From an uncultured Phycisphaerales bacterium (GTDB lineage Bacteria > Planctomycetota > Phycisphaerae > Tepidisphaerales > Tepidisphaeraceae): a stretch of 64,000 nucleotides of DNA. The notes beneath the pieces are model-generated. The model saw only the letters and a program-made list of their open reading frames with translations, ran no database searches and was not told the origin of the DNA. Position 1 is the stretch's first letter. Each line of letters opens with the position of its first letter. The position numbers and the translations under genes were made by a program. The stretch covers positions 4,384,001-4,448,000 of the forward strand of contig CAVWLP010000002.1 of the NCBI GenBank assembly GCA_963755915.1, written 5' to 3'. Below are positions 8,620 through 53,726 of the stretch, one piece after another.

Positions 8620-8725
8620 CCGCGTTTGATGGTAGCGCCACCCGCCCCAAAAGCAACGGGGAAGCCCACTCAGCTTTCCCCTCCCCGGGTATGGCGGGGC
8701 AGGGCGACATAATTTTACGTTTTGT

Positions 8726-10215
8726 TAATCCCGTTCGGCACGCAGGCTTCATCGGAGCATTCCAAAGCTGTGGAGGACGCGAAACAATTGAAGCTTAGAT
8801 ACTTTTACTTTCCCCTGCTGCACGCCGGCGTCCGCAAGAGCGCAGCATCAACCGCGAGGTCTCCGCGGCGACGGATTCCCCTTCAGTTTACTCCCAGTTT
8901 TTTCAAGGCCTCCGCTCTTGCCCTCAGCTTAATCCCGGTGTTATCCGGCTTGTTCAGGAATCGAAGCACGTCCTGTTCCTCGGCCAGCCCCAGCAGATAC
9001 CAGCCGATCATGTTCCGCATCGCCTTGTTCGGCTTCCTGCCGCTGATCAGCTGAATCAGCACGCAGACGATCAGCGCGCAGTGGATTTGGATGTCGATCC
9101 CCTCCTGGCGTTGGCTCAGCAGGTGACGCATGCCCAGCAGTTGCTTGAAGATCCGGAAGAACAACTCAACGGTGTAGCGGTACAGATAAATCAGGGCGAT
9201 CAATTCCGCCGGCAGGTCCAGCAGGTTCGTGTACAGGATGATCAGGTCCGTCGGCTTGTTGCCGCTGCGCGTGCGGCGCGGATGGGGTTTCACCTGCACT
9301 TCCACCCGTCGCACCACCCTATCCGCCGCCGTCTCCAGGCCGTCGAGTTTCACCAGCGCGTCTCGCACCACGCCGCCGTCCAATGCTTCCTGTGAAAGCA
9401 ATCGTTCTTCAAACAGCTCAAACACCGAGTTTTCCGCGGCCCGCATCACAAAGGAGCTTTGCGCCGCGGCGATGTCCGCAAAGAGGCTCCGGTCGGCGTA
9501 GCCGCCGTCTCCTACATAGCACCGTCCTGCTTCCAGGCTGCGCCGCAGGACGTTGTTTTCACGGTTGGCCCCCGCGTTGCGAGCGCCAGTGCGGTCGAGG
9601 CGATGGACTTTGAACGTCTCCAGATCGAATTGAACGTGCAAACGCCAGCCATAGACCGCTTTCCCGTCCCGGGAGGTGTTGTAGCGCGCATCGATGCCGC
9701 AAGCGGATTTGGCCAGCCGACTCAGCGCCGTCAGCACCGTCCCGTCGACCAGCGTGATCGCCTGCCCAAAGTCCGCAAGACGCGGATCGGGCGCCTGGGG
9801 CAGTTCCCCCGCCAATTCCTCAATCAGCGGCGTCAAACGCCCCGGCTCGAACACCCGAACCGATTCAGAGAAACTGCCCACGGAAAAACGCTTAATTCCC
9901 AGCGCCTTGGCCACCTTGGGCAGTTCAGCAACCTCCTGAAGATCCCGCAGGGATTGGATCAGCGGATTCCAGGTGTAAAGCAAAACCAGCTTGCAATAAT
10001 CGTCGAAGTGAAGCTGGCGGTTCCCGGCTCGATCCCGCTCACAGCCCACATCCCGCAGCGTGGGCAGCAGCGCGAAGACGCGCCGCAGATGTCCGAGGCA
10101 CAGGATCTCTTTTTCCTTCAGTCTTGCCTGCACGTCCGGCAGCATGCCATAAAAAGATCAAAGGCGCAATCTCAATATCTTGCTGCTTGCGCGAACCCCG
10201 TGCCGAACGGGATTA
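8726..10215 (-). mobile_element. IS4-family insertion sequence, copy 1 (1490 bp)
   Basis: 17-bp perfect terminal inverted repeats TAATCCCGTTCGGCACG; DDE transposase inside. Confidence 0.92.
8883..10145 (-). CDS. IS4-family DDE transposase (intact)
   Basis: LVDGT, YVGDGGY, YLYRYTVELFFRIFK (Y-R-E-K signature). Confidence 0.93.
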   Translation of the reverse strand: MLPDVQARLKEKEILCLGHLRRVFALLPTLRDVGCERDRAGNRQLHFDDYCKLVLLYTWNPLIQSLRDLQEVAELPKVAKALGIKRFSVGSFSESVRVFEPGRLTPLIEELAGELPQAPDPRLADFGQAITLVDGTVLTALSRLAKSACGIDARYNTSRDGKAVYGWRLHVQFDLETFKVHRLDRTGARNAGANRENNVLRRSLEAGRCYVGDGGYADRSLFADIAAAQSSFVMRAAENSVFELFEERLLSQEALDGGVVRDALVKLDGLETAADRVVRRVEVQVKPHPRRTRSGNKPTDLIILYTNLLDLPAELIALIYLYRYTVELFFRIFKQLLGMRHLLSQRQEGIDIQIHCALIVCVLIQLISGRKPNKAMRNMIGWYLLGLAEEQDVLRFLNKPDNTGIKLRARAEALKKLGVN

Positions 10216-10345
10216 ACAAAACGTAAAATTATGTAAAATCCGCAGCTGGCGGCAGCCGGAAGCTGCCGGGCGGTACGCCGCAAAACTTTAGGCCGGAAGC
10301 CGCTCCGTGGCTGGACGCCACGGCGGGCGGTACCCCCCAGTGGTA

Positions 10346-10420
10346 CGTAGGGTGGCGCGTACTCGCCCACCATTCCCTGATCGGCAGACCAAACGGTGGG
10401 CGAGTACGCACCACCCTACG
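10346..10420. repeat. REP doublet (REPIN-like), GTAG family
   Basis: CGTAGGGTGGCGCGTACTCGCCCACC (10346-10371) and its inverted copy (10395-10420); a third copy at 22510-22534. Confidence 0.8.
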
Positions 10421-10455
10421 GTCTTGCTAAAATCGCGTAAAACGTAACAAAACGT

Positions 10456-11944
10456 TAATCCCGTTCGGCACGGGGTTCGCGCAAGCAGCAAGATATTGAG
10501 ATTGCGCCTTTGATCTTTTTATGGCATGCTGCCGGACGTGCAGGCAAGACTGAAGGAAAAAGAGATCCTGTGCCTCGGACATCTGCGGCGCGTTTCGCGC
10601 TGCTGCCCACGCTGCGGGATGTGGGCTGTGAGCGGGATCGAGCCGGGAACCGCCAGCTTCACTTCGACGATTATTGCAAGCTGGTTTTGCTTTACACCTG
10701 GAATCCGCTGATCCAATCCCTGCGGGATCTTCAGGAGGTTGCTGAACTGCCCAAGGTGGCCAAGGCGCTGGGAATTAAGCGTTTTTCCGTGGGCAGTTTC
10801 TCTGAATCGGTTCGGGTGTTCGAGCCGGGGCGTTTGACGCCGCTGATTGAGGAATTGGCGGGGGAACTGCCCCAGGCGCCCGATCCGCGTCTTGCGGACT
10901 TTGGGCAGGCGATCACGCTGGTCGACGGGACGGTGCTGACGGCGCTGAGTCGGCTGGCCAAATCCGCTTGCGGCATCGATGCGCGCTACAACACCTCCCG
11001 GGACGGGAAAGCGGTCTATGGCTGGCGTTTGCACGTTCAATTCGATCTGGAGACGTTCAAAGTCCATCGCCTCGACCGCACTGGCGCTCGCAACGCGGGG
11101 GCCAACCGTGAAAACAACGTCCTGCGGCGCAGCCTGGAAGCAGGACGGTGCTATGTAGGAGACGGCGGCTACGCCGACCGGAGCCTCTTTGCGGACATCG
11201 CCGCGGCGCAAAGCTCCTTTGTGATGCGGGCCGCGGAAAACTCGGTGTTTGAGCTGTTTGAAGAACGATTGCTTTCACAGGAAGCATTGGACGGCGGCGT
11301 GGTGCGAGACGCGCTGGTGAAACTCGACGGCCTGGAGACGGCGGCGGATAGGGTGGTGCGACGGGTGGAAGTGCAGGTGAAACCCCATCCGCGCCGCACG
11401 CGCAGCGGCAACAAGCCGACGGACCTGATCATCCTGTACACGAACCTGCTGGACCTGCCGGCGGAATTGATCGCCCTGATTTATCTGTACCGCTACACCG
11501 TTGAGTTGTTCTTCCGGATCTTCAAGCAACTGCTGGGCATGCGTCACCTGCTGAGCCAACGCCAGGAGGGGATCGACATCCAAATCCACTGCGCGCTGAT
11601 CGTCTGCGTGCTGATTCAGCTGATCAGCGGCAGGAAGCCGAACAAGGCGATGCGGAACATGATCGGCTGGTATCTGCTGGGGCTGGCCGAGGAACAGGAC
11701 GTGCTTCGATTCCTGAACAAGCCGGATAACACCGGGATTAAGCTGAGGGCAAGAGCGGAGGCCTTGAAAAAACTGGGAGTAAACTGAAGGGGAATCCGTC
11801 GCCGCGGAGACCTCGCGGTTGATGCTGCGCTCTTGCGGACGCCGGCGTGCAGCAGGGGAAAGTAAAAGTATCTAAGCTTCAATTGTTTCGCGTCCTCCAC
11901 AGCTTTGGAATGCTCCGATGAAGCCTGCGTGCCGAACGGGATTA
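10456..11944 (+). mobile_element. IS4-family insertion sequence, copy 2 (1489 bp), inverted relative to copy 1; transposase 10526..11787 frameshifted at ~10594
   Basis: Same TIRs and same protein; CGCGTTTCGCG versus CGCGTCTTCGCG in copy 1 (1-bp loss). Confidence 0.92.
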
Positions 11945-12259
11945 ACGTTTTGTTACGTTTTCGGCGAATTAGTTAGTATATGCTAACTCATTTTGATTTA
12001 AGTCTGTGTGGGGGAGGTGGTTGCGTGGGGTTTGGTTAATTTTCAATAAACGCGGGGTGTAACATTGCTGGATAGGAATTCGCCCGCTCTTTCCACTTTC
12101 CACCGCTCTGCTCTCTCACGAAGCGAGGCGGAGATCGTGCGGGTCCGCGATGTTTCATCCGCAAGATTGTCCGGCAGTAATCTATCGAGTAACTTGTATG
12201 CGGACTCCGATCCGGAGTAACTGTGCTCTGAGTCGCGACATACGTAAAGGTGGTGCCTG

Positions 12260-15481: not shown

Positions 15482-17479
15482 GTGAATCTCCTCCCCCCCA
15501 TCGACCTCGCCTGGCAGCACCAGCAGGCCGGCCGCCTCAACGAGGCCGAAGCCATCTGCCGCCAGCTTCTCACCCACGACCCCAACAACGCCCCCGCCCT
15601 GCATCTGCTGGGCGTCATCGCCAAGCTCACCGGCAATGACGACGCCGCCCTTGAGCTTCTCGGTCGCTCGGTCGCCGTTGCCCCCAACGACCCCTTCGCC
15701 CAAAGCAATCTCGGCAACCTTCTTCGCGACAAAGGGCGTTTCGACCTCGCCCTGGCCGCCTATCACAAAGCCATCGCGCTTGACCCCAATTTCGCCGCGG
15801 CCTTCTTTAACCTGGGAATGTGCCACTGGCAGATGAACCAGGACGACCACGCCATCGCCAATCTCCGCCAGGCAATCCACATCTCCCCCGGCATGACCAA
15901 CGCCTGGTTCGCCCTCGCCACCGTCCTCAAGGAGGCCGGGCAGATCGAGCCTTCTATCGCCGCCTGCCAGAAGGCGATTGAACTCAACCCCAACGCCGCG
16001 GGGTACCACTACTCGCTTGCCGACGCATACGAACTCAAATCTCCCCCCTTGCACGACCAGGCCATCGCCGCCTACCGCCGCGCGATCGAGATCGATCCCA
16101 ATTACTCCGAAGCCCGCTGCGACCTCGCCGTCGCCCTCGCCGCCCTGGGCCGCGCCCCCGAATCCGAAGCCGCCCTCACCGACGCCGCCGCCCACGGCGC
16201 CGCCCCCGCCCTCCTCGCTCTCACCCGCGGCCGAATCCTCCACCGCGCCGGCCAATCCGAAAAAGCGATCGAATTTCTCCGCCGCGCCGCTCAGCTCGAT
16301 CCCGATTCCTGGCGCGCCTGGTTCAACCTCGGCAACGCCCTGCGCGAAACCGGCCGCTTTTCCGAAGCCGCCCAGTGCGTCCCCCGCATCCTCGCCCGCC
16401 GCCCAAATTCCTCCCACGCCTACGGCCTGCTCTCCAGCCTCGGCGCCGATCTCGACCCCTCCGAAATCTCCCGCCTCTCCCAATCCCTCGACGACCCCCA
16501 GCTCTCAAACGCCGATCGCGCCGCCCTAGGCTTCGCCCTCGGAAAATTCCTCGACAAATCCGCCCGCTATGACGAAGCCTTCACCCACTTCACCCGCGCC
16601 AACGCCGCCGCCCGCGATCTCCGCCGCGCCGCCGGCGAACGCTACAGCAGCGAACAATTCTCCCGCCACATCGACGACCTGATCGCCCTCACCACCCCCG
16701 ACTTCTTCACCCGCTGGCACACCGCCGGCGTCCGCTCCGATCTCCCCGTCTTCATCGTCGGAATGCCCCGCTCGGGAACCACCCTGATCGAACAAATCGC
16801 CGCCAGCCACCCCCAAATCTTCGGCGCCGGCGAGCTCAATGACATCCCCACCCTCGCCGCAAAATTAAATTTCCCCCACTGTTCCCCCGATCAAATCACC
16901 CAGACCGCTCAGCATCACCTCGACCACCTTCGCTCGCTCGCCCCCTCCGCGGCCGGCGTCATCGACAAGATGCCCGCGAACGTCGAGCATCTGGCCCTGA
17001 TCGCCGCCCTTTTCCCCGAAGCCAGGATCATCTTCTCCCGCCGCGACCCGCGCGACACCTGCCTCTCCTGTTTCTTCCAACCCTTCCTCGAAGGAAATCT
17101 TTTCAGTTTCGACCTGGCCGACTGCGCCCGCCATCACGCCCAGATCGACCGCCTCATCGAGCATTGGAAATCAGTGCTGCCCCTGCGCATGCTGGAAGTC
17201 CAATACGAAACCCTGGTTCAGGACCCCGACCCCCAATCCCGCCGAATCATCGAATTCCTGGGCCTTCCCTGGCACCCCGCCTGCCTGGATTTCCACCACA
17301 CCCAGCGCCCCATCCACACTGCCAGCGCGTGGCAAGTCCGCCAGCCGCTCTACAATCACTCCATCGGCCGGTGGAAAAATTATGAGAAATATCTTGGCCC
17401 ACTTTCGGACGCCCTGCGCCTTACCCCCTCTCCCGGTACTCCGGGAGAGGGCAGGGGTGAGGGCCTTGGAAAAATCTGA
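15482..17479 (+). CDS. TPR-repeat sulfotransferase
   Basis: Multiple TPRs; FIVGMPRSGTTLIEQI, DKMPAN, RDPRDTCLSCF, TASAWQVRQPLY; likely GTG start at 15482. Confidence 0.92.
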   Translation: MNLLPPIDLAWQHQQAGRLNEAEAICRQLLTHDPNNAPALHLLGVIAKLTGNDDAALELLGRSVAVAPNDPFAQSNLGNLLRDKGRFDLALAAYHKAIALDPNFAAAFFNLGMCHWQMNQDDHAIANLRQAIHISPGMTNAWFALATVLKEAGQIEPSIAACQKAIELNPNAAGYHYSLADAYELKSPPLHDQAIAAYRRAIEIDPNYSEARCDLAVALAALGRAPESEAALTDAAAHGAAPALLALTRGRILHRAGQSEKAIEFLRRAAQLDPDSWRAWFNLGNALRETGRFSEAAQCVPRILARRPNSSHAYGLLSSLGADLDPSEISRLSQSLDDPQLSNADRAALGFALGKFLDKSARYDEAFTHFTRANAAARDLRRAAGERYSSEQFSRHIDDLIALTTPDFFTRWHTAGVRSDLPVFIVGMPRSGTTLIEQIAASHPQIFGAGELNDIPTLAAKLNFPHCSPDQITQTAQHHLDHLRSLAPSAAGVIDKMPANVEHLALIAALFPEARIIFSRRDPRDTCLSCFFQPFLEGNLFSFDLADCARHHAQIDRLIEHWKSVLPLRMLEVQYETLVQDPDPQSRRIIEFLGLPWHPACLDFHHTQRPIHTASAWQVRQPLYNHSIGRWKNYEKYLGPLSDALRLTPSPGTPGEGRGEGLGKI

Positions 17480-18575: not shown

Positions 18576-19043
18576 TCACACCACCGCCTCCACCGCCCTC
18601 CGACTCCCCTCATCCATCTCATCCATCCTCGGCAACTCATAAATCGTCCCATCCGCATCCTTCACCGTAAACCTACCATCGGCCATAAACCGGATATCCT
18701 CCCGTTCCTGCACCCGAAAATCCGCCGGCCCGCGGTCCGTTTCCACCGTCCACTGCTGAAACCCAAACCGCACATCCACCGCCATCACCCGCGTAATCCG
18801 CGGGATCATGCTCGTCCCCGCCAGATAATTCTCGACGATTCCCCGCAGCCCCTCGGAAAGCTTCCCCAGATCGTCGATCATCACCAGTTCCTTCCCCTCC
18901 TTGCTGCGAATGCTGACGTTCCTCTCCGGCGAAGACCACGGAAACGACCGCCGCACGCGCACGTCCACCACCTCCTCCACCCCCGGCCGCACCAGCACCA
19001 TTCGCCCTTGCGGATCCACCTTCAAATCAAACGCCTCGCTCAT
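18576..19043 (-). CDS. DUF1854 domain protein
   Basis: VRRSFPWSSP...IPRITRV...WTVETDRGPADF...KDADGTIY; follows the ABC transporter. Confidence 0.85.
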   Translation of the reverse strand: MSEAFDLKVDPQGRMVLVRPGVEEVVDVRVRRSFPWSSPERNVSIRSKEGKELVMIDDLGKLSEGLRGIVENYLAGTSMIPRITRVMAVDVRFGFQQWTVETDRGPADFRVQEREDIRFMADGRFTVKDADGTIYELPRMDEMDEGSRRAVEAVV

Positions 19044-19051
19044 AACTCTCC

Positions 19052-21471
19052 TCACCGCAGCGCCAACTGCGAGTTCAGTTCCACTTGCGTCTTAAAGAGC
19101 TTCGCATACACGCCCCCCTCCTTGTCCACCAGTTCCCGGTGCGTCCCCTGCTCCACGATCTTGCCGCTTTCCAGCACCACCAGCCGGTCGGCGCTCGTCA
19201 ACGTGCTCAGCCGGTGCGCAATGGCAAACGTCGTGCGCCCCTCAACTAGACGGTTCAGCGCCTGCTGAATTTCCCGTTCCGTCTCCGTATCGACCGAGCT
19301 GGTCGCCTCATCCAGGATCAATATCCGCGGATTGTGCAGGATCGCCCGCGCGATGCTGATCCGCTGCCTCTCCCCGCCCGACAGGCTCTGCCCGCGCTCC
19401 CCCACGAGCGTGTCATATCCATCCGGAAATCCCACGATAAAATCATGCGCGTTGGCCGCCCGTGCTGCCGAGATCACCGCCTCCTCGCTCGCCTCCGCGT
19501 TCCCATAGCGGATATTGTCCGCGATCGTCCCGTGAAACAGGTACGGCTCCTGCAAGACCAGCCCAATTTGCCTCCTCAAAAACTTCACGTCAAAATCGCG
19601 AACGTCAATCCCATCGATCAAAATCTGCCCCTCCGTCACGTCATAAAACCGGCACAGCAAATTCACCAGCGTGCTCTTCCCGGCCCCGCTTTTTCCGCAC
19701 AGCCCGATCATCTGCCCCGGCTCCGCCGACATCGAAACCTCGCGCAGCGCCGGCTGCGCCCCCTCATAACTGAACGAAACATTCCGAAACTCAACCCGCC
19801 CCTCCAGCCGATCCTTCACCACCGCATCCGCCCGCGAATAAACGTCCGGCGGTGTATCCAGAATCTCGAAAATCCGCTGCGCACTCGTTGCCGCCCGCGT
19901 CACCATCCGGTTGCTGTTCGCCAGCTCCATGATCGGCTGATAGAACTGCCACACAAACTGCGTAAACGCGATCAGCACCCCCAGCGTATACCGCGGATCG
20001 TTCGGATGCTTGATCACCAGCCACCCCCCGATCACCCAGATCAGCAGCGCCCCAAACCGCATCAACCCGCTGACCCACGGCGCCAGCGCCGTCCAGACGA
20101 TGTGAATTTCGCTCGCCTTGTCGGTATATTCATTGCTCCGCCGATCAAACCGCCGGATTTCCTTCTGCTCATTGGCAAACGCCTTCACCACCCGCACGCC
20201 CGGCAGCGCATCCCCGACCACCGCGCTCATCCGCGAATAGTAGGTCCACAATCTTCCAAACATCCGCTGCATCTTCATGCCGCGCTTGTATGTGAGTACC
20301 CCCAGCACCGGCAGTGGCAGCAGCGCGATCGCCGCCAGCTCCCAGTTCATCTTGAACATCATCGCCGCGATTGCCGCGATCATTGCCACGTCGCGAATCA
20401 GATCGATCGATCCAAACACGATGAAATCCCACAGCCGGTCCGTGTCGCTGGTCACCCGCGTAATCAGCGACCCGGTCCTCCGCTTGGAAAAATAGCGCGG
20501 GCTCAGGTCGTGCAGATGCTCATACACCTTGTGCCGAAGATCGGCGGTGATCCTCTCCCCCATCAGCGCCAGCGTGCGCAGGCGAAGCGCGTTCAGCCAT
20601 TCGCTGACGACCACCACGATCAGCAGCGCCGACGACCACACCACCAGCTCGTGCACCCGATATCCGAGCGTCATCGCGGCCGCGCTGGCGTGCGCCGGCG
20701 CGATCGCCCGGTCCACCAGTTGCCGGTTCATCCACGCCGGTATTGCCGCCATTGCAGAAACCAGGATGGTCAGCACCAGCGCAAACCGCGTCCGCCACTT
20801 ATACGGCTTGGCCACATCCAGCAATCGCGACAAAATCTTCCGCTTCGCCGCGCACTGCGGGCACACCCCTTCGGCATACGATGGAATTAGCTCCCCGCAC
20901 TTCGGGCAATGCGCCTTTCGCTCCGCCTCCCGCTCAACCGCATCCAGCCACTCCGGCCTCCCCTCCGTCTTCTCCTTCGAATCGTCCGCCCGTCTGATCT
21001 GCCTCTGCAATTTCCGGTTCAGCCGCGTCATCGTCGTCCGATGCCGCCGCGAATACCGCAGTTCCCCCGCCGCCTTCCCCTCAGACACGATCACCAGCCG
21101 GTCCACCCCCAGCCCCTCCACAATCCGGCTCTCCTCGATCTTCTCCAAAGCAATCGACCGGCGCCTTCTCTCCCCCCACCGGACGCCCCTCTTTCCCCCT
21201 CTCCTGGTACTCCGGGAGAGGGTTGGGGTGAGGGCCGTGAATTCTCCTCATAGCCCACACCATCGCCCCCCACCCCAATCTGCACCAACTCCCGATCGGT
21301 GAGCACCACAAACTGCCGCGCAAACCGATTCCGAGAATCCAAATCGAACTCTGACCACCCCAAAATCGTCTGCCCCGCCAGCTCTCCATCCAGCCGCGCC
21401 GCCACCGCCGGCGGCAAGCCGCCCGTCCCCACCACTTCCATTTCCATCTCACTCGTTGTCCCCTGACTCAT
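19052..21471 (-). CDS. ABC exporter, fused permease/ATPase with N-terminal extension and Zn ribbon (DUF1854-associated type); frameshift in a G run ~21172
   Basis: GKSGAGKST, LSGGERQR, ILILDEATS, IAHRLST; CPKC..CPQC; N-terminal FDLDSRNRFARQFVVLTDREL in the adjacent frame. Confidence 0.9.
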
Positions 21472-21481
21472 CGCCATCTCC

Positions 21482-21520
21482 AAAAAAAAGCCACGCGGTC
21501 TTGATTCAAGGCCGCGTGGC
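21482..21520 (-). terminator. Intrinsic terminator directly upstream of the ABC transporter start (attenuator)
   Basis: GCCACGCGGCCTTGAATCAAGACCGCGTGGC followed by T8, then GGAG-N6-ATG. Confidence 0.85.
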
Positions 21521-21546
21521 GGGAATTTCCAGTTCTATGGGCAGAT

Positions 21547-21648
21547 TCAGCCTCGATCCGCCTCCCGCCTGCGCACCGTAGCAACCATTTCCGAGCGGCT
21601 GCGCCGCCTGATGGTTACTGCAAAGTTGTGCGTCGAGTGGTTGAGCAT
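21547..21648 (-). CDS. Putative Arg-rich leader peptide MLNHSTHNFAVTIRRRSRSEMVATVRRREADRG
   Basis: 33-aa ORF with AAGGAGGAG SD, lying between a promoter and the terminator; below the ORF-track cutoff. Confidence 0.65.
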   Translation of the reverse strand: MLNHSTHNFAVTIRRRSRSEMVATVRRREADRG

Positions 21649-21678
21649 GTTACGGATATTTCTCCTCCTTGAGCCGGA

Positions 21679-21707
21679 ACAATGCCCGAACTCTCAGGCG
21701 TTGTCAA
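21679..21707 (-). promoter_or_regulatory. Sigma70-type promoter
   Basis: TTGACA-17 nt-CATTGT immediately upstream of the leader SD. Confidence 0.65.
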
Positions 21708-21764
21708 CAACAATCTTCCCCAATTTTGCCCGGCAGCACCCATTTCGTTATCGTCTCCGCCCAC

Positions 21765-22373
21765 ATGCACCATTCTATTCCCTCTCTTCTCCGCCGGCTA
21801 CTTCTCCCCCTCGCCGCCCTACTCTGCACCGCCTGCGCCGCCACAGACTCCCCGCCCCAAATCACCACCCTCGAATCCCAGGTCACGACCATCCTCGCCC
21901 AGATCCAGCAGCAGGACCCCAACATCCAAGCCCAGATCGACCGCTCCTACGGCTTCGCCCTCTTCCCCTCCATCCTCAAAATCGCCGCCGGCGTCGACAT
22001 CGGCTACGGCCGCGGAATCGTCTTCCAGCACCACCGCCAGATCGGCGAAGCCTCCGTCCTCCAATACAACGTCGGCGCCGCCATCGGCGGTCAGCAATAC
22101 TGGCAGCTCATCCTCCTCCCCGAAAAAACCGACCTCGACGACCTCCGCGACGGCCCCACCCTCGCCGTCGGAAACGCCTCCGGAATCTTCATCCATTCCG
22201 GCTCGGGTTTAACTCTCGCCGTCCCCAGCGGGTCCGCCTCCATGGTCCAACCCACCTCCGGTCTCATGTTCGAAGTAGCCATCGGCGGCCAAACCTTCTG
22301 GTTCCAAAACCTGAAGCCAGGTGAATGGAACTACTCCGCTACCGTCTCCTCACCACTTCTTGCCCAACGATAA
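21765..22373 (+). CDS. SYLF/Ysc84-like lipid-binding lipoprotein
   Basis: Lipobox-like LCTAC; SYGFALFPSILK..G.GYGRGIVF; VGAAIGGQQY; GLMFEVAIGGQTF. Confidence 0.75.
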   Translation: MHHSIPSLLRRLLLPLAALLCTACAATDSPPQITTLESQVTTILAQIQQQDPNIQAQIDRSYGFALFPSILKIAAGVDIGYGRGIVFQHHRQIGEASVLQYNVGAAIGGQQYWQLILLPEKTDLDDLRDGPTLAVGNASGIFIHSGSGLTLAVPSGSASMVQPTSGLMFEVAIGGQTFWFQNLKPGEWNYSATVSSPLLAQR

Positions 22374-22458
22374 CCGGCAAGTATTTCCCCCACCCACGGT
22401 AATCCGGGGGAGGGTTAGGGAGGGGGTTTTTCCGAATGACGTGTTAAATCCTCATCCC

Positions 22459-25694: not shown

Positions 25695-28279
25695 TTAGTG
25701 GTTGAGCTCTGGCGATTTGAGCGCCGCCGCGAGGCTTTCGCTCGCCTCCTCGAACGTCGGATCCAACTCGACCGCCCTGCGATATTGCTCGATCGCACCA
25801 GGAAAATCCCCCTTCGCGCGGAGGATTTCTCCCAGCCCGTAGTTCGCCCGCCCGTGCCAGGAAGACTGCGACAGCACCAGTTGATATTCCGCCGTCGCCT
25901 CCGCGAATTTATGCTGGTCTCGGTAAACCTCCGCCAGCGCAAAGTGCGCCCGTGTGAAATCCGCCTGCAGCTCGATCGCCCGTTTGAATTCTCCAACCGC
26001 CTGGTCGACTTTCCCCTCCGCCTGGAATAACTGGCCCAGCCCGAAGTGCGTCAGCGCCTTGTTCGGATCGAGCTGAAGCGATTGCCAGAATTGCTCCGCC
26101 GCTTCGTCAAAACGCCCTTCCATCCACAATGCCTTCGCCAGGTTGTACCGAGCCGTCGCGTTGGTCGGCTGAAGGCGAATGATGTGCTCATACTCCAGAA
26201 TCGCCTGGGTGTGATTGCCTCTAAACCAGAACACCTTGCCGAGGAACCCATACGCCCAGGGGTAATCCGGATTGATTTTGACCGCCTCCTCGAACGCATC
26301 CACCGCGTCGTCCGTGTGGTCGGCGTATTGCAGGGCGATCCCCAGGTTTGCATAAACGATCGCCGTCCCCGGACGCAGCGCCAGGGCAGCCCGGAAATAT
26401 CCCACCGCTTCCTCGGGATCGCTTTTACGCAGCGCCCGGCCCAGCCAGAAGTTCGCCCAGAAATCGTCCGGATGCTGCCGCTGGATCGAGGTCAGCAGCG
26501 GCCGCGCGTCCCCCCCTGGCCTTCCAGCGAGACCGCCAGCGCCAGGAGCAAATGCACCGAGTTTTCGGTGCGGGGAACGCTTTGCACCAGCGCCGTCACT
26601 GCCGCCTTGTTGCTCCATTTTGCCGGGTCACGGGCGATATCTCGCCACGGGTCGGGGTCGGCCCGGCGCCACGTCCATCAGCCACGCCCGGCGGGTCTGA
26701 TTTTTCGCGCAACCCGACCAATCGTCCAGCGCCGCCACCAATTCCGCGCGAAACGGAGAAGCCGCGATCCTCGCCGCCACGATTTTCGGCGCGTCCCCGA
26801 CCGAACCCAGCCCCGAAACCCGGAACTCGTTCTCGTATCCCTGGTCGGCCTGGGCATTGCTCACCAGCCCATCAACCTCCGATGCCCGGTCCAGGCAGAT
26901 CGCGTCGAGCCGGTTAATAAGCTGGTGGCCCTGGCTCAATTGTTCCAGCAGAAGCAGTTGCTGCCGCAAAACATCCGGCCCACCCGCTCCGAGTTGAACC
27001 TTCACGCGCTCCAGCTTTGCATCGCCGCCCGACCAATCCGACTGAAGCTGGAGCTGTTTGACTTCGTTCAGCTCATCCGTCACTTCGCGCACGTTTTCGG
27101 CGCGCTGGGATGCGAGCACGAACCCGGCCGCCCCGATCAGCAGCGCCAGCAGAACCGCGCTCGCCGCCGCGGCCGCTTTCGCCGGTTGCCGCCGGGCCCA
27201 CAGGAACATTCGCTCGACAGCCCCCACCGGACGCGCGTGAATCGGCTGCGCCGCAAGGAACCGCCGAAGATCGGCCGACAAGTCGCCCGCCGTCCCGTAC
27301 CGCCGGGTAGGATCCTTGCTCAAACATTTGAGGCAGATCGTTTCCAGATCGCCGGGAACCTTGGCGTTCAACTTCGACGGAGCCGCCGGTTCGTTCTGCA
27401 TCACCTGCCGGCGCGTTTCGATGGACGTCACCGCCCGAAACGGCGGCCGCCCCGTCAGGAATTCGTACAGGATCGCCCCCAGCGAATAAATGTCCGTGGA
27501 CGCATCCAGCGCCCGGAGTTGCCGCCCGCTTGTTCCGGCGACATATAGCTCGGCGTCCCGACGGGCATGCCCACTTCGGTCAGCCCCGACTGGCCGTTCA
27601 TCTGCCGGGCCAGTCCGAAATCAGTCAGCTTCGGGATCCCATCCGCCGTCATCAGCACGTTGGCCGGTTTGATGTCGCGGTGAATGATTCCTTTTCCGTG
27701 GACCGCCCCGATCGCATCCGCGAGCGTTGCCGCCAGGCTCGCCGCCTGCCGCGCGTGCAGCGGAGCCCCCGTGAGTCGCTGCGCCAGGTTCCCGTCTTCC
27801 ACGTATTCCATCGTGAAATAGGCAACGTCGTTGTGATTGCCGATGTCGAACACCTGCACGATGTTCGGATGGCGTATGCCCGCAATCGCTTCCACTTCGC
27901 GGTGGAACCGTTCGAGCTGGTGAAGCTGGGCATATTCGCCCGAAAGGAGCATTTTCAGCGCCACCGGGCGATTGAGTCGCAGGTCCCAGGCTTTGTAGAC
28001 GACTCCTATGCCGCCGCGCCCGAGCACCGCCTGGAGTTCGTAACCGGGGATTCGCGGCAGATCGAAGGCCGATTGCCTCGCCCCCCCATCCGCATCCGGC
28101 CGCGTCGACCCGGCCGGTGGAAAGAGCAGGTTCACCCGCGCTTCCACGGCGCTCAAAACATTCAGTCGCTGGCGGACGACCGGAAGAAGCTGCGGGTAAT
28201 CGATGCAGACTTCCTCGGCCGCTCGATTTGATTCCAGGATCTGATCGACGAGCTGTTGGATGCTGGGATCGGGGGACAT
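25695..28279 (-). CDS. Hanks-type Ser/Thr kinase with TM segment and C-terminal TPRs; frameshifted (~27520, ~26650, ~26515)
   Basis: LGRGGIGVVY, VALK, HRDIKPAN, DFGLAR, GTPSYMSPEQ, DLETICLKCL, RRY; HPDDFWANF followed by TPRs. Confidence 0.9.
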
Positions 28280-30414: not shown

Positions 30415-32635
30415 ATGCGAATTTTATTCGTCTGGGCCGCGGCGGCGTTAACAACCTGCGCCGCATTGGGCTGGGCCGACGCCACGACGCAGCCCAGCAG
30501 TGCCACGGCAACCACAACTCCAAGCTCGGTTGAGGCCCCACCGATTCCGGGACCGCCGCCAACGCAATCGGTGGCCGCAACTCAGCCGGCAAGCACGCAG
30601 CCGGCGCAAGTTACAGCGCGGTTGAAGAAGGTGGTCGTGACCAGCGATCTCGATTTGCTGCGCGATCAAATTGCCCCGGGCCTCGGCGCAACTGAATACA
30701 CCCAGGGGCCAAACCAGATCGCCAACATCCCCGGCGGCCAGAACGCGACCTTCCAGCAGGTCATCCTTCGCGATCCCGGCGTAGTGGCGGACTCCTTCGG
30801 GCAGTTTCACGTCCGCGGCGAGCACGCCAATGTTACCTATGACGTCGATGGCGTGCTCCTTCCGCAGCCGATCAATACGTTCGGACAGGAACTGGATACG
30901 CATTTAATTCAATCGGTGACTTTGGTGGACGGCAGCCTGCCGGCCCAATATGGATTTCATACGGCGGGAATCATTGATGTCACCACCAAAACGGGAACGG
31001 CTTTGCAAGGCGGCGAAGTTTCACTTTACGGCGGCAGTTACGACTGGTTTGAGCCCTCGGTGGAACTGGGGTGGTCAGACGGCAAGTGGGATATTTTTGC
31101 CACGGGATCGTACAAGCACAACAGCATCGGGATTGAAAATCCGACGGGAAGCGTGCGGCCGATTCATGATGACACCAGCCAGCAGCGCGGGTTTATCTAC
31201 GCCGCATATCATATCGACGATACGAGCCGGCTCACTTTTATCGTTAACGGCGCCAACCAGGATTTTCAGATTCCCAATGTTCCCGGTGCGCCATCCTTGT
31301 TTCAGCTCGGCCCGATCACGAACTTCGATTCCGCCGATCTGAACGAAACTCAGAACGAGCAGGAATACTACGGCGTCGTCTCTTATCAGAAGAGTCTGGA
31401 AGACTTTTCGATCCTGGCGTCGGCATTTTACCGGTATGGGCAAATTCATTTCGTACCGGATTTCACGGGAGATCTGATTCTCCAGGGCGTCGCCGGTGAG
31501 GTGTTCAACTCTTATTCCACCGAAGGATTCCAGATCGACAGCTCCTTTAACCTCAACGACCAGAACACCCTGCGCCGGCCTGATCGGGGACTATACCGTC
31601 GAGCGGAATAACACCAATACGAATGTTTTTCCCGTCGATCCCGTGACGGGAGCCCAGACTTCCACGATACCGGAAGACATCACTGACGACACGCGCAACG
31701 ACGGACTGGAGATCGGCGGATATCTGCAGGATGAATGGAAATTGACAAAAACGGTCACCGTGAATTTCGGCGCCCGCCTGGACGAATTCGATGCAAATTT
31801 TGACAACGAGGGGCAGCTTAGCCCGCGCGTGAACCTGGTGTGGAAAGTGACGCCGGAAACGACGGCCCATATCGGCTACGCGAGGTATTTCGTTACCCCG
31901 CCGATCCAATATGTGCCGCCCAGCACATTGGCGAAATTCACCAACACCACCAACGCCCCGGCCAACATCCTGGACAACGCGCCCGTGGCCGAGCGGTCGA
32001 ACTATTACGATGCCGGCCTCTCGCAGCAGATCACCAAGTCGTGGACGGTGAATCTCGACGGCTATTATAAGCAGGCCCACAATCTGATCGATCTTGGCCA
32101 GTTCGGCGATGCCGTGATTTTCACTCCATTCAACTATAAATACGGGCTGGTGTATGGCACCGATGTCAGCACCACCTACAAACAGGACGGCTTCTCTGCC
32201 TTCGGGAATTTCGGATGGGTGGAGACGAACGGCAAAGACATCGTTTCGCAGCAGTTCACCATCGATCCCGCCGAGCTGAGTTACATCGCGTCGAATTTCA
32301 TCAAGCTCGACCACGAGGCGCAATACAGTGCATCGTTGGGCGTCTCCTACGAATGGAGAGACAACGACGTTTATCTCGATTGGGTTTACAGCTCCGGCCT
32401 GCGGTCGGGATTTGCGAATCTGCTGGAAGAGCCCTCTTCTTACCCCGTCAACATCGGTTATGCCCACACCTTCCAGGTGGATGATGACCGGTGTGATTTG
32501 GTGAAGCTTCGCTTCGACATCGTGAACTTGTTCGACGAGGTTTATCAGATTCGAAGCGGGACCGGCGTGGGCGTGGCGGCGCCGCAATATGGGCAGAGGC
32601 GCACCTTTCTCGTGGGGCTCTCCTATGTCTTTTGA
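30415..32635 (+). CDS. TonB-dependent receptor (frameshift ~31575)
   Basis: Signal peptide, VVVT TonB-box-like segment, plug HVRGEH..YDVDGV, YLQDEW, SPRVNL, IVNLFD, C-terminal YVF. Confidence 0.9.
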
Positions 32636-35064: not shown

Positions 35065-36034
35065 GTGCCGGAGGCGAGGGAGAACGCCGAGCATATGCGG
35101 ATGGTGGGCGAACATCCGGCGATGCGGCGTCTGCGCGAACTCTCGGCGGCGGTCGGCCGCAGGGAATGCACCGTTCTTATCCGCGGGGAAAGCGGCACCG
35201 GCAAGGAACTGCTGGCGCGGCAAATCCATTTGGCTAGCCTCCGGGCCTCGGGACCGTTTGTTCCCGTCGACTGTTCAACGCTTAGGGATTCCCTTTTGGA
35301 ATCGCAACTCTTCGGGCACGTGCGCGGCGCGTTTACCGGGGCGGCGTGCAATACGCTGGGGTTCTTTCGGGCCGCCGATGGGGGGACGATTTTTCTGGAT
35401 GAGATTGGGGAGTTGCCGCCTGAGGCGCAGGCGCGGTTGCTGCGATGCCTCCAGGAGCGCGGTTGTGCCGCTGGGGACCGTCCGGGCGATTCCCGTGAAC
35501 GTGCAGATCATTGCGGCCACGCATCGGCCTCTGGCGGAGATGGTCAGGCAGGGTTCATTCCGCATGGACCTTTATTTTCGAATCAACGTGGTGGCGCTCG
35601 AGATACCGCCGCTACGGAATCGCCGCGAGGACATCGCCCTGCTGGCGGAACAGTTTTTAAGGGATATGGCCCGTGCGTATGACGAGCCACAACATGCCAT
35701 TTCGCAGGAGGCGATGAACCGGCTGGTGGAATATGACTGGCCGGGCAATGTTCGCGAGCTGCGGAACGTGCTGGAGCGGGCGTGCGCGCTGACGCAGAAC
35801 CAGACGCTGGGCGTGGAGGACCTTCCGGCGGAACTGGGGACGCGAGCGGTCGAGCAACCACCAACTGTAGCGAAGGCGATAGCGTCCCTGGCCGACATGG
35901 AACGCCAGATGATCGCATCGGCCCTGCGGGACAGCGGGGGAAACCAGACGCGCGCGGCGGTCGCGCTGAAGGTCGAGCGGCACCGGCTGGGCCGGATGAT
36001 TCGGCGGCTTGGCTTGCAATCTCTGATTCATTGA
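35065..36034 (+). CDS. Sigma54 enhancer-binding protein with no N-terminal regulatory domain (frameshift ~35460)
   Basis: GESGTGKE, ESQLFGHVRGAFTGA, FLDEIG, FRMDLYFRI, WPGNVREL, GNQTRAA HTH. Confidence 0.9.
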
Positions 36035-50300: not shown

Positions 50301-50617
50301 CGCTGGAGGCCGAGCGCAAGCAGGGAAAGAACTCGACCGAGGCCATTTACGAGGCGTCGCTGCTGAGATTTCGGCCCATCATGATGACGACAATGGCCGC
50401 TCTGCTCGGCGGACTTCCACTGGCGTTTGGCGGCGGCATCGGCTCCGAGCTGCGCCGGCCGCTGGGAATCGCCATGGTCGGCGGCCTTCTGCTGAGCCAG
50501 GCGCTCACGCTCTATACAACGCCCGTCATTTACATTTTCTTTGATAATCTCGCGCATCGCATCGGGCGCAAGCCGGAGATGAATCCGAACGACATTCGTG
50601 GAGCGCAGCTTGCATGA
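47303..50617 (+). CDS. mdtB: RND transporter, MdtB-like
   Basis: [53 protein letters not shown]. Confidence 0.93.
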
Positions 50618-53600
50618 ACGTCTCGGACCCATTTATCCGCCGGCCGGTTGCGACCACGCTGATCACCGCGGCGATCGCCATCGCGGGCATGATTGCATTC
50701 AAGGTTTTGCCGGTTTCACCCCTGCCGCAGGTGGATTTTCCGACGATTTCGGTCGGAGCCGGCTTACCCGGGGCCAGCGCGGAAATCATGGCCTCTTCGG
50801 TCGCCACCCCGCTGGAGCGGCAGTTTGGGCATATCGCGGGGGTGACCGAGATGACGTCCTCCAGCTCGCTGGGGACGACAACGGTTACCCTTCAATTTGA
50901 TCTGAGCCGCAATATCGACGGCGCCGCTCGCGACGTGGAAGCGGCGATCAATAACGCCCGCACATATTTGCCCGCGAATCTGCCGTCGAATCCCACCTAT
51001 CGCAAAGTAAATCCCGCCGACGCCCCGATCCTCATCCTGGGCCTTACCTCCGACATCTACGGGCCCGACAAGCTTTACGACGTGGCCTCGACGATCATCG
51101 AGCAAAAGCTTTCGCAGATAGAGGGGGTCGGCCAGGTGAGCGTGGGGGGTGGAGCCTTGCCCTCGGTGCGCGTCGATGCCAATCCCACGCAACTGGCGAA
51201 TTACGGCCTGGGCCTCAGCGATGTGCAAAAGGTTCTGAGCCTCCAGAATTCGGACATGCCCCGCGGGCAGATCGCCAATGCGGGGACGACGGCGGACATC
51301 ATCACCAATGGCCAAATATCGCATGCCGCCGATTACGCCCCGCTAATCATTGGCTATCACAACGGTCTTGCCGTGCGCCTGGAGGATGTGGCGAAGGTGA
51401 CCGACTCGGTACAGAACATCCGCGCGGGGGGATTTCTGAACGGGAAGCGCGCGGTGATCGTGATCGTTTTCCGCCAGCCGGGGGCAAATATCATTGAAAC
51501 CAATGAGCGAATTCTTGCCCAATTGCCCGCGGTCAAGGCGTCGATTCCGCAAGGTATAGAGACCACTGTCGTGCTCGACCGGACCACCACGATTCGCGCT
51601 TCGGTGAACAACGTTGAAGTAACGCTGATCATTGCGGTCAGCCTCGTGGTTGTGGTGGTTTTCGCGTTTTTACGCAATGCGCGGGCAACACTGATTCCGG
51701 GCGTCGCCGTCCCGATCTCCCTGATCGGCACGTTCGCGATCATGTACCTCTTCGGTTACAGCCTGGACAACCTTTCGCTGATGGCGCTGACGATCTGCAC
51801 GGGGTTCGTGGTAGACGACGCCATCGTGGTGATGGAGAACATCACCCGCCACCTCGAGGCGGGCATGAAGCCGTTCGAAGCGGCGCTGAAGGGACGCAGG
51901 AAATCGGGTTTACGGTCGTCACCATCAGCATTTCGCTCATCGCGGTCTTCATTCCGCTGTTGCTGATGGGCGGGATCGTCGGCCGGCTGTTCCGCGAGTT
52001 CGCGGTGACGCTTTCCACGGCCATCATGGTCTCAATGGTCGTCTCGCTGAGCACCACGCCCATGATGTGCGCTCACTTTCTCAAACCCATTCAAAATCAA
52101 AAGCACGGTCGCATTTATGCGGCGTCCGAACGAATATTCGATTCCATGCTCAAGCTTTACGACCGTACGCTTCAGTGGGTCCTCCTCAATCCCGCCCCAA
52201 TACTTTTCGTCCTTGCCCTGATCGTCGCTCTGAACGTCGTCATGATTTTAAAACTCCCCCAGGGGTTTTTTCCCCAGCAAGATACCGGCGCAATCGCGGG
52301 CGGCCTGCAGGGGCCCCAGGATGCGTCGTTCCCGTTTATGAATAATTCGATAAAAATGATTGCCGGTGTGGTCAAAAACGATCCGGCTGTGCAGAACGTT
52401 GTCGCATTCACCGGCGGCGGCGGGGCGACGAATACGGGCTTTGTATATATCGCGCTAAAGCCGCTCAAACAGCGGAAGGTGAGCGCGTTCGACGTGATCA
52501 ACCGCTTGCGGCCGAAGCTCAATCATCTCCCCGGGGCGTCGGTCTTCCTGCAGGCGGCGCAGGATTTGAGGATGGGCGGGCGAAGCAGCAACGCGATGTA
52601 TCAATACACGATCCAATCCGACAACGTGAACGACCTGCTCACCTGGGGACCGAAAATGCTGGCGGCGATGAAGAAACTGCCGGGCTTGCAGGACGTGAAC
52701 ACCGACCAGCAAAACGGCGGGCTCGATGAAATGTTGACCTATGATCGTGCGGCGGCGGCCAGGCTCGGCGTGACGCCGCAAACCCTCGATTCGGCACTCT
52801 ACAGCGCCTTCGGCCAGTCCGAAGTTTCGGTGATTTACACGCAGCTCAACCAATATTACGTCGTGCTCGAGGCCGCGCCGCAATATTGGCAAAGCCCCGA
52901 TGGGCTGAAGGCGATTTATCTCCAAAACTCGGGGCCCAATGGCGTTCCCATCGCGACGATGTCCGAGAATAGCAGCGGCACCACCCCGCTGGCGGTAAAT
53001 CACACCGGCCTGTTTCCATCGGTCACACTTTCGTTCAACTTGGCCCCGGGTGTTTCCCTCAGCCAGGTGACTACGCTACTCAACAACATGCAGAAGAAGA
53101 TCGGATTGCCGGACACGGTCCACGGGTTCTTCGCGGGCACGGCCGCCGCCTATCAGCAATCCAAAAACTCCGAATACGTCCTCGTCGTCACCGCCCTGCT
53201 AGCCGTCTATATCGTGCTTGGGATCCTCTATGAGAGCCTCGTCCATCCCATCACAATCATCTCCACCCTCCCCTCCGCCAGCGTCGGCGCAATGCTGGCC
53301 CTGATGATCTTCAAGCAAGAGCTCGACGTCATTTCCATCATCGGCATCGTTCTGCTGATCGGCATCGTCAAGAAAAACGCGATCATGATGATCGACTTTG
53401 CCCTACAGGCCGAAAGGAATGAGGGAAAGACCAGTGCCGATGCGATCTTCGAAGCCTGCATGCTCCGCTTCCGCCCGATCATGATGACGACGACCGCGGC
53501 GCTCTTCGGCGCTGTCCCCCTGGCGTTTGGAACGGGCACCGGATCCGAACTGCGCCGCCCGCTGGGAATCACGATCGTCGGCGGCCTGATCGTGAGCCAG

Positions 53601-53726
53601 TTGCTCACGCTCTACACGACGCCGGTGGTATACCTGGCGTTTGACCGCATGCGGCTGTACATGCAGGGCAAGCCCCAGGATACGTTCCATGGAAATGCGG
53701 GATTGATGCCGGCGCCGGCCAACTGA
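50614..53726 (+). CDS. mdtC: RND transporter, MdtC-like (frameshift ~51895)
   Basis: [44 protein letters not shown]. Confidence 0.92.

Follow-up and report, generated by a model that had tools for sequence, protein, structure and literature searches.

A leader that may attenuate transcription according to ribosome position, ahead of an ABC exporter/DUF1854 operon in an uncultured planctomycete

What decides whether RNA polymerase enters an operon whose first gene stands directly behind an intrinsic terminator? This question is raised by a locus in an uncultured Phycisphaerales bacterium of the Tepidisphaeraceae (assembly GCA_963755915.1, contig CAVWLP010000002.1, positions 4,384,001 to 4,448,000), analyzed here as one 64,000-nt stretch that we call the window and to which all coordinates refer. 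Its minus strand carries a two-gene operon for an ABC exporter and a DUF1854 protein, and the ~200 nt ahead of this operon hold a short upstream open reading frame (uORF), alternative RNA helices and the terminator. We give a probability of about one half to the reading that this leader is a transcription attenuator whose outcome depends on the position of a ribosome on the 33-codon uORF. An original prediction had described the region as a complete leader-peptide attenuator with runs of arginine codons, and every element that it listed is present, in order, on the minus strand between 21471 and 21707 by direct reading. The features on which the argument draws, including a Shine-Dalgarno (SD)-like stretch and the minimum free energy (MFE) folds, are as follows.

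21679 to 21707, minus strand: promoter-like TTGACA (21707-21702), 17 nt, CATTGT (21684-21679), read directly; a putative promoter
21662 to 21670, minus strand: SD-like AAGGAGGAG, read directly, 13 nt 5' of the uORF ATG
21547 to 21648, minus strand: uORF of 33 codons plus TGA, encoding MLNHSTHNFAVTIRRRSRSEMVATVRRREADRG, with predicted translation
21580 to 21619, minus strand: hairpin P1, uORF codons 10-23, -20.3 kcal/mol
21595 to 21609, minus strand: Arg run 1 (RRRSR), codons 14-16 and 18, in the apical stem of P1
21565 to 21640, minus strand: long imperfect hairpin of the full-length MFE fold, its outer helix (21640-21628 with ~21578-21565) stacked on P1
21565 to 21573, minus strand: Arg run 2, codons 26-28, within the antiterminator strand
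21510 to 21577, minus strand: predicted antiterminator, GGUGCGCAGGCGGGA (21577-21563, codons 24-29) pairing with UCCCGCCACGCGGCC (21524-21510)
21535 to 21537, minus strand: in-frame TAG four codons past the TGA (ATC TGC CCA TAG), which aligns with the invariant CCN TAG of distant leaders; a candidate homology
21482 to 21520, minus strand: intrinsic terminator (fold and terminator scan), stem of 9 bp plus 4 bp (21520-21490), then U8 (21489-21482)
21469 to 21481, minus strand: GGAG (21481-21478), 6 nt and the ATG of the ABC gene (21471), matching ortholog starts
18576 to 21471, minus strand: ABC exporter gene and DUF1854 gene, forming an operon (Pfam, orthologs, reading frames)

The case for regulation begins with the terminator, which folds at -23.1 kcal/mol (z -6.0; none of 200 shuffled sequences folds as well), the lowest energy of any terminator-like site on either strand of the window, and which ends 18 nt 5' of the ABC start. 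That the ABC gene truly begins at ATG 21471 follows from its full-length orthologs, which begin at the matching residue (MSQGTTSE or MAQGT in relatives P0001, P0003 and P0005-7), and the predicted succession of a GC-rich terminator with U8, GGAG, six nucleotides and ATG was borne out. The leader is located in a 287-nt divergent intergenic region, directly 5' of the ABC start, and the neighbor on its other side is a likely lipoprotein gene with its ATG at 21765. Because this upstream gene is divergent, the terminator ends no upstream gene, and its position leaves no space for a promoter before the ABC start. These observations support the conclusion that a very strong terminator is sited where only a regulatory role makes sense. 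Two other accounts of this site were rejected: an internal ABC promoter in the terminator loop (CTGGAA-17-TTGAAT) is a weak match by eye that is absent from the consensus scan, and a terminator serving the plus strand would have neither a convergent gene nor a T run on that side.

The predicted folds of the leader include an anti-antiterminator, an antiterminator and the terminator, and the antiterminator would exclude each of the other two. Hairpin P1 is beyond chance (z -3.6; none of 200 shuffles folds as well) and does enclose the first Arg run, as had been proposed; in the folding model it is a candidate for a pause hairpin or for the core of the anti-antiterminator. The long hairpin between 21640 and 21565 (-31.5 kcal/mol, z -1.8, with 11 of 200 shuffles as good) occupies the antiterminator strand and is thus the predicted anti-antiterminator. 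The antiterminator duplex itself is predicted to comprise 13 bp (-22.9 kcal/mol) and to take up 9 of the 13 base pairs that the terminator 5' arm would otherwise make, and its loop carries a small hairpin (21562-21540) containing the TGA stop. When transcripts are cut before the terminator 3' arm, the MFE structure always contains the antiterminator, and the MFE structure of the full-length transcript consists of the long hairpin plus the terminator.

The uORF lies 5' of the terminator and runs through both competing helices. As described originally, it encodes 33 amino acids with eight Arg, AGG and CGA codons among them, and is preceded by AAGGAGGAG. An SD-like pentamer at -20 to -5 is found for only 7 of the 255 first-ATG ORFs of 20-60 amino acids in the window, and ~0.01 SD-preceded short ORFs are expected by chance per 180-nt stretch. 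The uORF ATG (21648), its TGA (21549), the downstream TAG (21537) and the ABC ATG (21471) also share one reading frame; this is probably a coincidence, the chance being 1 in 3 for the ABC start.

From the elements present, the predicted folds and leaders of the same architecture at distant orthologs (see below), we infer translation of the uORF, its coupling to transcription and the regulatory outcomes that follow. Transcription would start near 21672. By default, a ribosome would traverse codons 24-29 to the UGA, where, positioned within the antiterminator loop, it would mask the 3' end of the antiterminator strand, so that the terminator (21520-21490 plus U8) would form and transcription would stop 18 nt before the ABC start. 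Without ribosome loading, the long hairpin (21640-21565) would hold the antiterminator strand and the terminator would likewise form. A ribosome delayed at approximately codons 5-20, which include RRRSR, would open the long hairpin; the freed antiterminator strand could then pair with 21524-21510, and RNA polymerase would read into the ABC gene. Read-through is thus predicted when an early delay on the uORF frees the antiterminator strand, and termination is predicted when translation is smooth or absent. The signal would be slowed uORF translation, whether by Arg-tRNA supply, a ribosome-directed compound or peptide-specific arrest. Arg-tRNA supply is one candidate, which we regard as doubtful, and a general slowing of translation, by analogy with bmrBCD, would fit equally well.

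The points that weigh against this reading concern the leader itself, its relation to distant leaders and the state of the ABC gene, the last two of which are given further below. The predicted promoter, TTGACA-17-CATTGT, is present as a string, but its -10 hexamer agrees with TATAAT at only three of six positions and a consensus scan of 21000-22200 reports no promoter-like site. A spacing of 13 nt between the SD-like sequence and the ATG is long, and an open frame of 33 codons is by itself common here, as open stretches of 21-48 codons lie 5' of the stop in all three frames; ORF openness and third-position G+C content (GC3) do not discriminate coding sequence in this DNA. The uORF is reported by no gene caller, and its peptide had no match among 1.84 billion representative proteins, a search that is uninformative in that the peptide did not retrieve even itself. 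With respect to RNA structure, the proposed pairing of the second Arg run is predicted and does overlap the terminator 5' arm, but it is no stronger than chance: the antiterminator fold has a z of -1.1 (26 of 200 shuffles), and a duplex of equal strength arises with 21% of segments drawn at random from the window and with 15.5% of shuffles (p 0.16-0.21). The claim of attenuator geometry is supported in that the uORF runs through the predicted anti-antiterminator and antiterminator ahead of a terminator; the fold of the leader as a whole has a z of -1.4.

Support of another kind came from distant ABC/DUF1854 loci. A set of 80 loci was taken from among the matches listed (at least 606 stretches) for a search pattern that represents a generic ABC signature from a 36-protein alignment. 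These loci are distant, the best tblastn segment being mostly 38-48% identical, with four partial matches reaching up to 61%, and for 56 of them the alignment runs on from the N-terminal domain. A recurrent module of uORF, antiterminator and terminator was found in ten of them, which comprise seven Gemmatimonadota (L011, L019, L021, L039, L043, L047, L053), a member of the Longimicrobiales (L015), a Planctomycetota metagenome-assembled genome (MAG; L017) and a deltaproteobacterial MAG (L022). In all ten, an ATG uORF of 21-48 codons ends in an invariant TAG, with a terminator 15-31 nt beyond, and eight have a purine-rich SD-like stretch 5' of the uORF when read by eye. The family terminator, GGCCUUYCGGG...CCYGRAAGGCC, shows compensatory changes in 5 of its 11 stem pairs. 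In all ten cut transcripts, a strand spanning the stop (from -6 to -10 through +6 to +16) pairs with the terminator 5' arm; the paired sequences are GCACCC and GGGUGC in most loci, but GAGCGCC and GGCGCUC in L011 and L015.

The peptides of this family end in R-x-R-A-P in six of the ten loci, with near variants in L022 (R-G-G-R-A-P) and L021 (R-K-R-T-P), and [ST]-x-[IMT]-R-R-[RLP] occurs at residues 8-14 in five. The Arg at -3 is specified by CGA (four loci), AGA (three) or AGG (one), the Arg at -5 by AGA, CGA, CGG or AGG, and the Gly at -4 by GGT, GGC or GGA. Conservation of these residues through varied codons points to selection on the amino acids, and hence to translation, in that family. 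A covariance model of the ten loci, R1, also found a leader outside its training set (L002:4184-4449, E 6.7e-4), which is a variant, as well as a fragment where the L007 contig ends (E 0.072); it made no further match at a comparable position among the 80 loci. A profile search with six family peptides plus the window peptide returned four annotated peptides, all close relatives of those of L019 or L039 that keep the C-terminal half; none of the four resembles the window peptide. The DUF1854 gene always lies 3' of the ABC gene where sequence is available, and other flanking genes differ among the loci, so the leader belongs to the two-gene ABC/DUF1854 module.

Two further observations were made on the distant loci. 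Just 5' of the terminator, CGUGAUCC can form a helix with GGAUCACG, whose last base is 3-7 nt short of the ABC start codon; the helix is present in four of six Gemmatimonadota loci folded from the base before GUGAUCC to the ABC ATG (L047, L053, L043, L039), and the model suggests that it could mask the ribosome-binding region in read-through transcripts. In addition, an apparently conserved uORF beginning M[FL]GPR[RK] in ten betaproteobacterial loci (L037, L051, L054, L058, L066, L067, L068, L070, L075, L078), ~215-270 nt 5' of the ABC start where measured, was rejected: the ORF varies from 6 to 55 amino acids, and its three-base periodic conservation ends in CAT, which identifies it as antisense to a conserved divergent gene at the 5' end of the latter.

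The window leader is like the R-x-R-A-P-UAG family in preceding the same operon and in the order of SD-like stretch, ATG uORF, antiterminator, terminator and ABC start. Its stop lies 26 nt from the terminator, a distance equal to that in four of the ten family loci; its peptide has T-I-R-R-R where the family has T-S-[IM]-R-R; and its CGA GGC TGA ATC TGC CCA TAG (R G stop I C P stop) resembles the family's AGA GGT CGA GCA CCC TAG (R G R A P stop), with which CCN TAG RA aligns. It differs in that its stop is UGA and its antiterminator strand lies at -28 to -14 from that stop, whereas the family UAG lies inside the strand; its peptide ends in EADRG and lacks the RAP that precedes the family stop, and the terminator arms of the two differ. 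Three models derived from the distant family, with the window excluded, were applied: R1 recovered only the terminator part of the window leader (10.1 bits, E 0.18), nhmmer found no match there, and the peptide hidden Markov model (HMM) missed the window uORF frame near the top of its list and gave E 0.1 for another frame of the region. In a midpoint-rooted FastTree phylogeny, the 12 leader-bearing loci fall in one ABC clade, which also contains L005, L035 and L041; the window ABC protein lies outside that clade and pairs with L003, in which no family leader was detected. Given these failed tests of membership, the family is counted as support for the kind of mechanism and not as the family of the window leader.

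The rival that survives best, although we consider it unlikely, is that the attenuator is real and is switched by an RNA-binding protein, a small-molecule-binding leader RNA or a small RNA, with the ORF incidental to G+C-rich stems. In its favor, each Arg run falls in a stem, the first in the apical part of P1 and the second in the antiterminator strand; reading frames in this DNA are typically open and their translations rich in Arg; the SD-like sequence has a long spacing to the ATG; and P1, a well-defined hairpin, could serve as a binding site. However, across 4227 Rfam families (E up to 10) the sole match to the leader was SmY, at 18.2 bits against 39 and so under half of the gathering score, and the combination of an SD-like sequence with an ATG ORF is rare in the window. 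The distant leaders also argue against an incidental ORF, as they keep the stop codon invariant while its potential pairing partners vary, and keep Arg at -3 and -5 through CGA, AGA, AGG and CGG, which points to translation there.

A classical amino-acid attenuator, in which charged tRNA-Arg is sensed and a stall at RRRSR (codons 14-18) opens the antiterminator, is quite unlikely in our estimation. With usual ribosome footprint sizes applied to the predicted folds, an A site at codons 14-16 would put the end of the ribosome near 21590, which is the right distance 5' of the antiterminator strand (start 21577). No more than 1.2% of 33-amino-acid windows contain two RRR runs, and RR[RL] is found at residues 11-13 in five of the ten distant leader peptides; half of the distant leaders have no Arg run. 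The Arg content as such is ordinary for this G+C-rich DNA, since at least eight Arg occur in 12.3% of all 33-amino-acid six-frame windows and 18 of the 159 ATG ORFs of 25-50 amino acids in the window are equally Arg-rich. Nor is codon choice distinctive: the eight codons are three CGC, two CGG, two AGG and one CGA, and AGG at 2/8 compared with 6.5% in window genes is not significant (p ~0.09, binomial). Furthermore, a stall at Arg run 2 would favor termination, because this run is itself the antiterminator strand, and induction of an exporter upon Arg shortage has no obvious logic. The proposal that the Arg runs act as the sensor is therefore not supported, as the Arg content is ordinary, both runs coincide with G+C-rich stems and the second constitutes the antiterminator strand.

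The only link of the operon to arginine is indirect. DUF1854 and ABC genes are reported to be cofit with cyanophycin-synthetase-like genes in two betaproteobacteria, cyanophycin being an Asp-Arg polymer (bioRxiv 10.1101/072470), which possibly adds a little to the case for Arg-tRNA supply. Against this, no cyanophycin-synthetase-like Pfam domain was found among 43 window ORFs scanned or among 39 ORFs flanking the leader-bearing loci.

A broader and more speculative proposal, which we hold to be very unlikely as a whole, is that control of ABC/DUF1854 exporters across several phyla lies with a single ancient family of sensory leader peptides, of which the window leader would be a diverged or nonsense-mutated member. 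Under this proposal, R-x-R-A-P would be kept by selection on amino acids, an arrest like that of RAPP peptides would act on release and not on elongation, and the stay of the ribosome would decide between terminator and antiterminator, perhaps tuned by arginine, a cyanophycin-like product or the exporter substrate.

The state of the operon and its surroundings bears on whether the leader still functions. The ABC protein has an N-terminal cytosolic extension followed by ABC_membrane and ABC_tran domains (Pfam), its closest named relatives are from Tepidisphaeraceae and Fontivita, and, apart from a frameshift, it and the DUF1854 protein are intact and well conserved (61-85% identity to orthologs). 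The following features are relevant.

21091 to 21471, minus strand: first ORF of the ABC gene
19052 to 21148, minus strand: second ORF of the ABC gene, in a different frame, 698 codons
18576 to 19055, minus strand: DUF1854 gene (Pfam)
789 to 2651; 26631 to 28279; 30415 to 32632; 35065 to 35679; 50614 to 53723: genes called split or truncated from their ORFs

In the assembly, the first ~65 codons of the ABC gene (from 21471) are out of frame with the 698-codon ORF, which counts against the attenuator reading. The frameshift lies among G runs inside a palindromic insertion that resembles a repetitive extragenic palindromic (REP) element (21239-21191, repeat family D9); in relative P0001, which is 93% identical, the same insertion is in frame. 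The REP-like element interrupts the N-terminal domain of the ABC protein, and further copies lie at 17420-17468 and 22383-22431. Splits or truncations also affect at least five further genes of the window (putA, a Ser/Thr kinase gene, a TonB-dependent receptor gene, a sigma-54 activator gene and a second RND pump gene), which suggests either an indel-prone assembly or widespread pseudogenes. Elsewhere in the window, two identical DDE-transposase genes stand head to head at 8724-11946 as a perfect 1353-nt inverted repeat (8724-10076 and 10594-11946), with an additional perfect pair of 140 nt.

Highly improbable, finally, is a decaying relic or unregulated small transcription unit that lost the end of its uORF through a CGA to TGA change and is expressed by leakage, since the likeness to the family's AGA GGT CGA GCA CCC TAG, the frameshifted ABC gene and the other broken genes, which speak for decay, are set against otherwise intact proteins, an in-frame insertion in the 93%-identical relative, a complete set of alternative folds in the leader, and the fact that many split genes and frameshifts in G runs are explained by assembly indel errors at least as well.

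If the proposed dependence on ribosome position is correct, the inducer of the ABC/DUF1854 exporter would be whatever slows the leader ribosome, and this would provide a handle on the stimulus to which the exporter responds. Leader-peptide attenuation is textbook material for Proteobacteria and Firmicutes, and we know of no description of it in Planctomycetota or Gemmatimonadota. The mechanism class is therefore classical, and the leader is one with no Rfam family and no known description for its operon: none of 11 family loci has an Rfam match at the gathering score, and the literature found on DUF1854 and PF08909, as far as its text was available, describes no leader for the ABC/DUF1854 operon, in agreement with the original statement.

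The window leader can be compared with known systems. It shares with the classical amino-acid leader-peptide attenuators (trp, his, leu, thr, phe) a uORF close to the putative promoter, a set of three predicted alternative helices, an intrinsic terminator ahead of the first gene and, in the predicted stall zone, consecutive codons for one amino acid. Unlike them, it precedes an operon that is not for Arg biosynthesis, its Arg runs are not statistically distinctive and the second run lies in the antiterminator strand; moreover, its stop codon is 3' of the antiterminator strand, whereas that of amino-acid attenuators lies between regions 1 and 2 (for the trp case, as summarized in PMC4191407). 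Another parallel is the bmrBCD ABC exporter of Bacillus subtilis, for which a ribosome-mediated attenuator is reported as experimentally established and slowed translation as favoring the antiterminator and read-through (PMC4191407). Both leaders have a short ORF 5' of an ABC exporter, translated in the case of bmrB, and a predicted anti-antiterminator, antiterminator and terminator; the bmrB terminator is described as lying inside a 53-codon ORF, 119 bp before bmrC, whereas that of the window lies past the stop, 18 nt before the ABC start (PMC4191407). The transporter also differs, being a homodimer-type ABC protein with an N-terminal cytosolic domain and a DUF1854 partner, and it comes from another phylum.

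A last comparison applies to the distant family only, as the window peptide, which ends in EADRG, does not have the C-terminal R-A-P-P/G motif of RAPP-type arrest peptides. Arrest at the end of a leader peptide is exemplified by TnaC, with its Arg-Pro-stop. For the RAPP-type arrest peptides ApdA and ApdP, peptidyl-R-A-P-tRNA is reported in stalled ribosomes, and arrest is said to require Pro-tRNA (or Gly-tRNA) in the A site (PMC10951233). With the A site at the UAG of a family leader, the P site would likewise hold peptidyl-R-A-P-tRNA; the A site would present a stop codon in place of Pro-tRNA, and ApdA and ApdP are described as regulating Sec/YidC genes through translation and not through a terminator (PMC10951233). 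In this way, the distant family, with its UAG inside the antiterminator and its conserved R-A-P end, would offer a compact system in which to ask whether a RAPP-like nascent chain delays peptide release.

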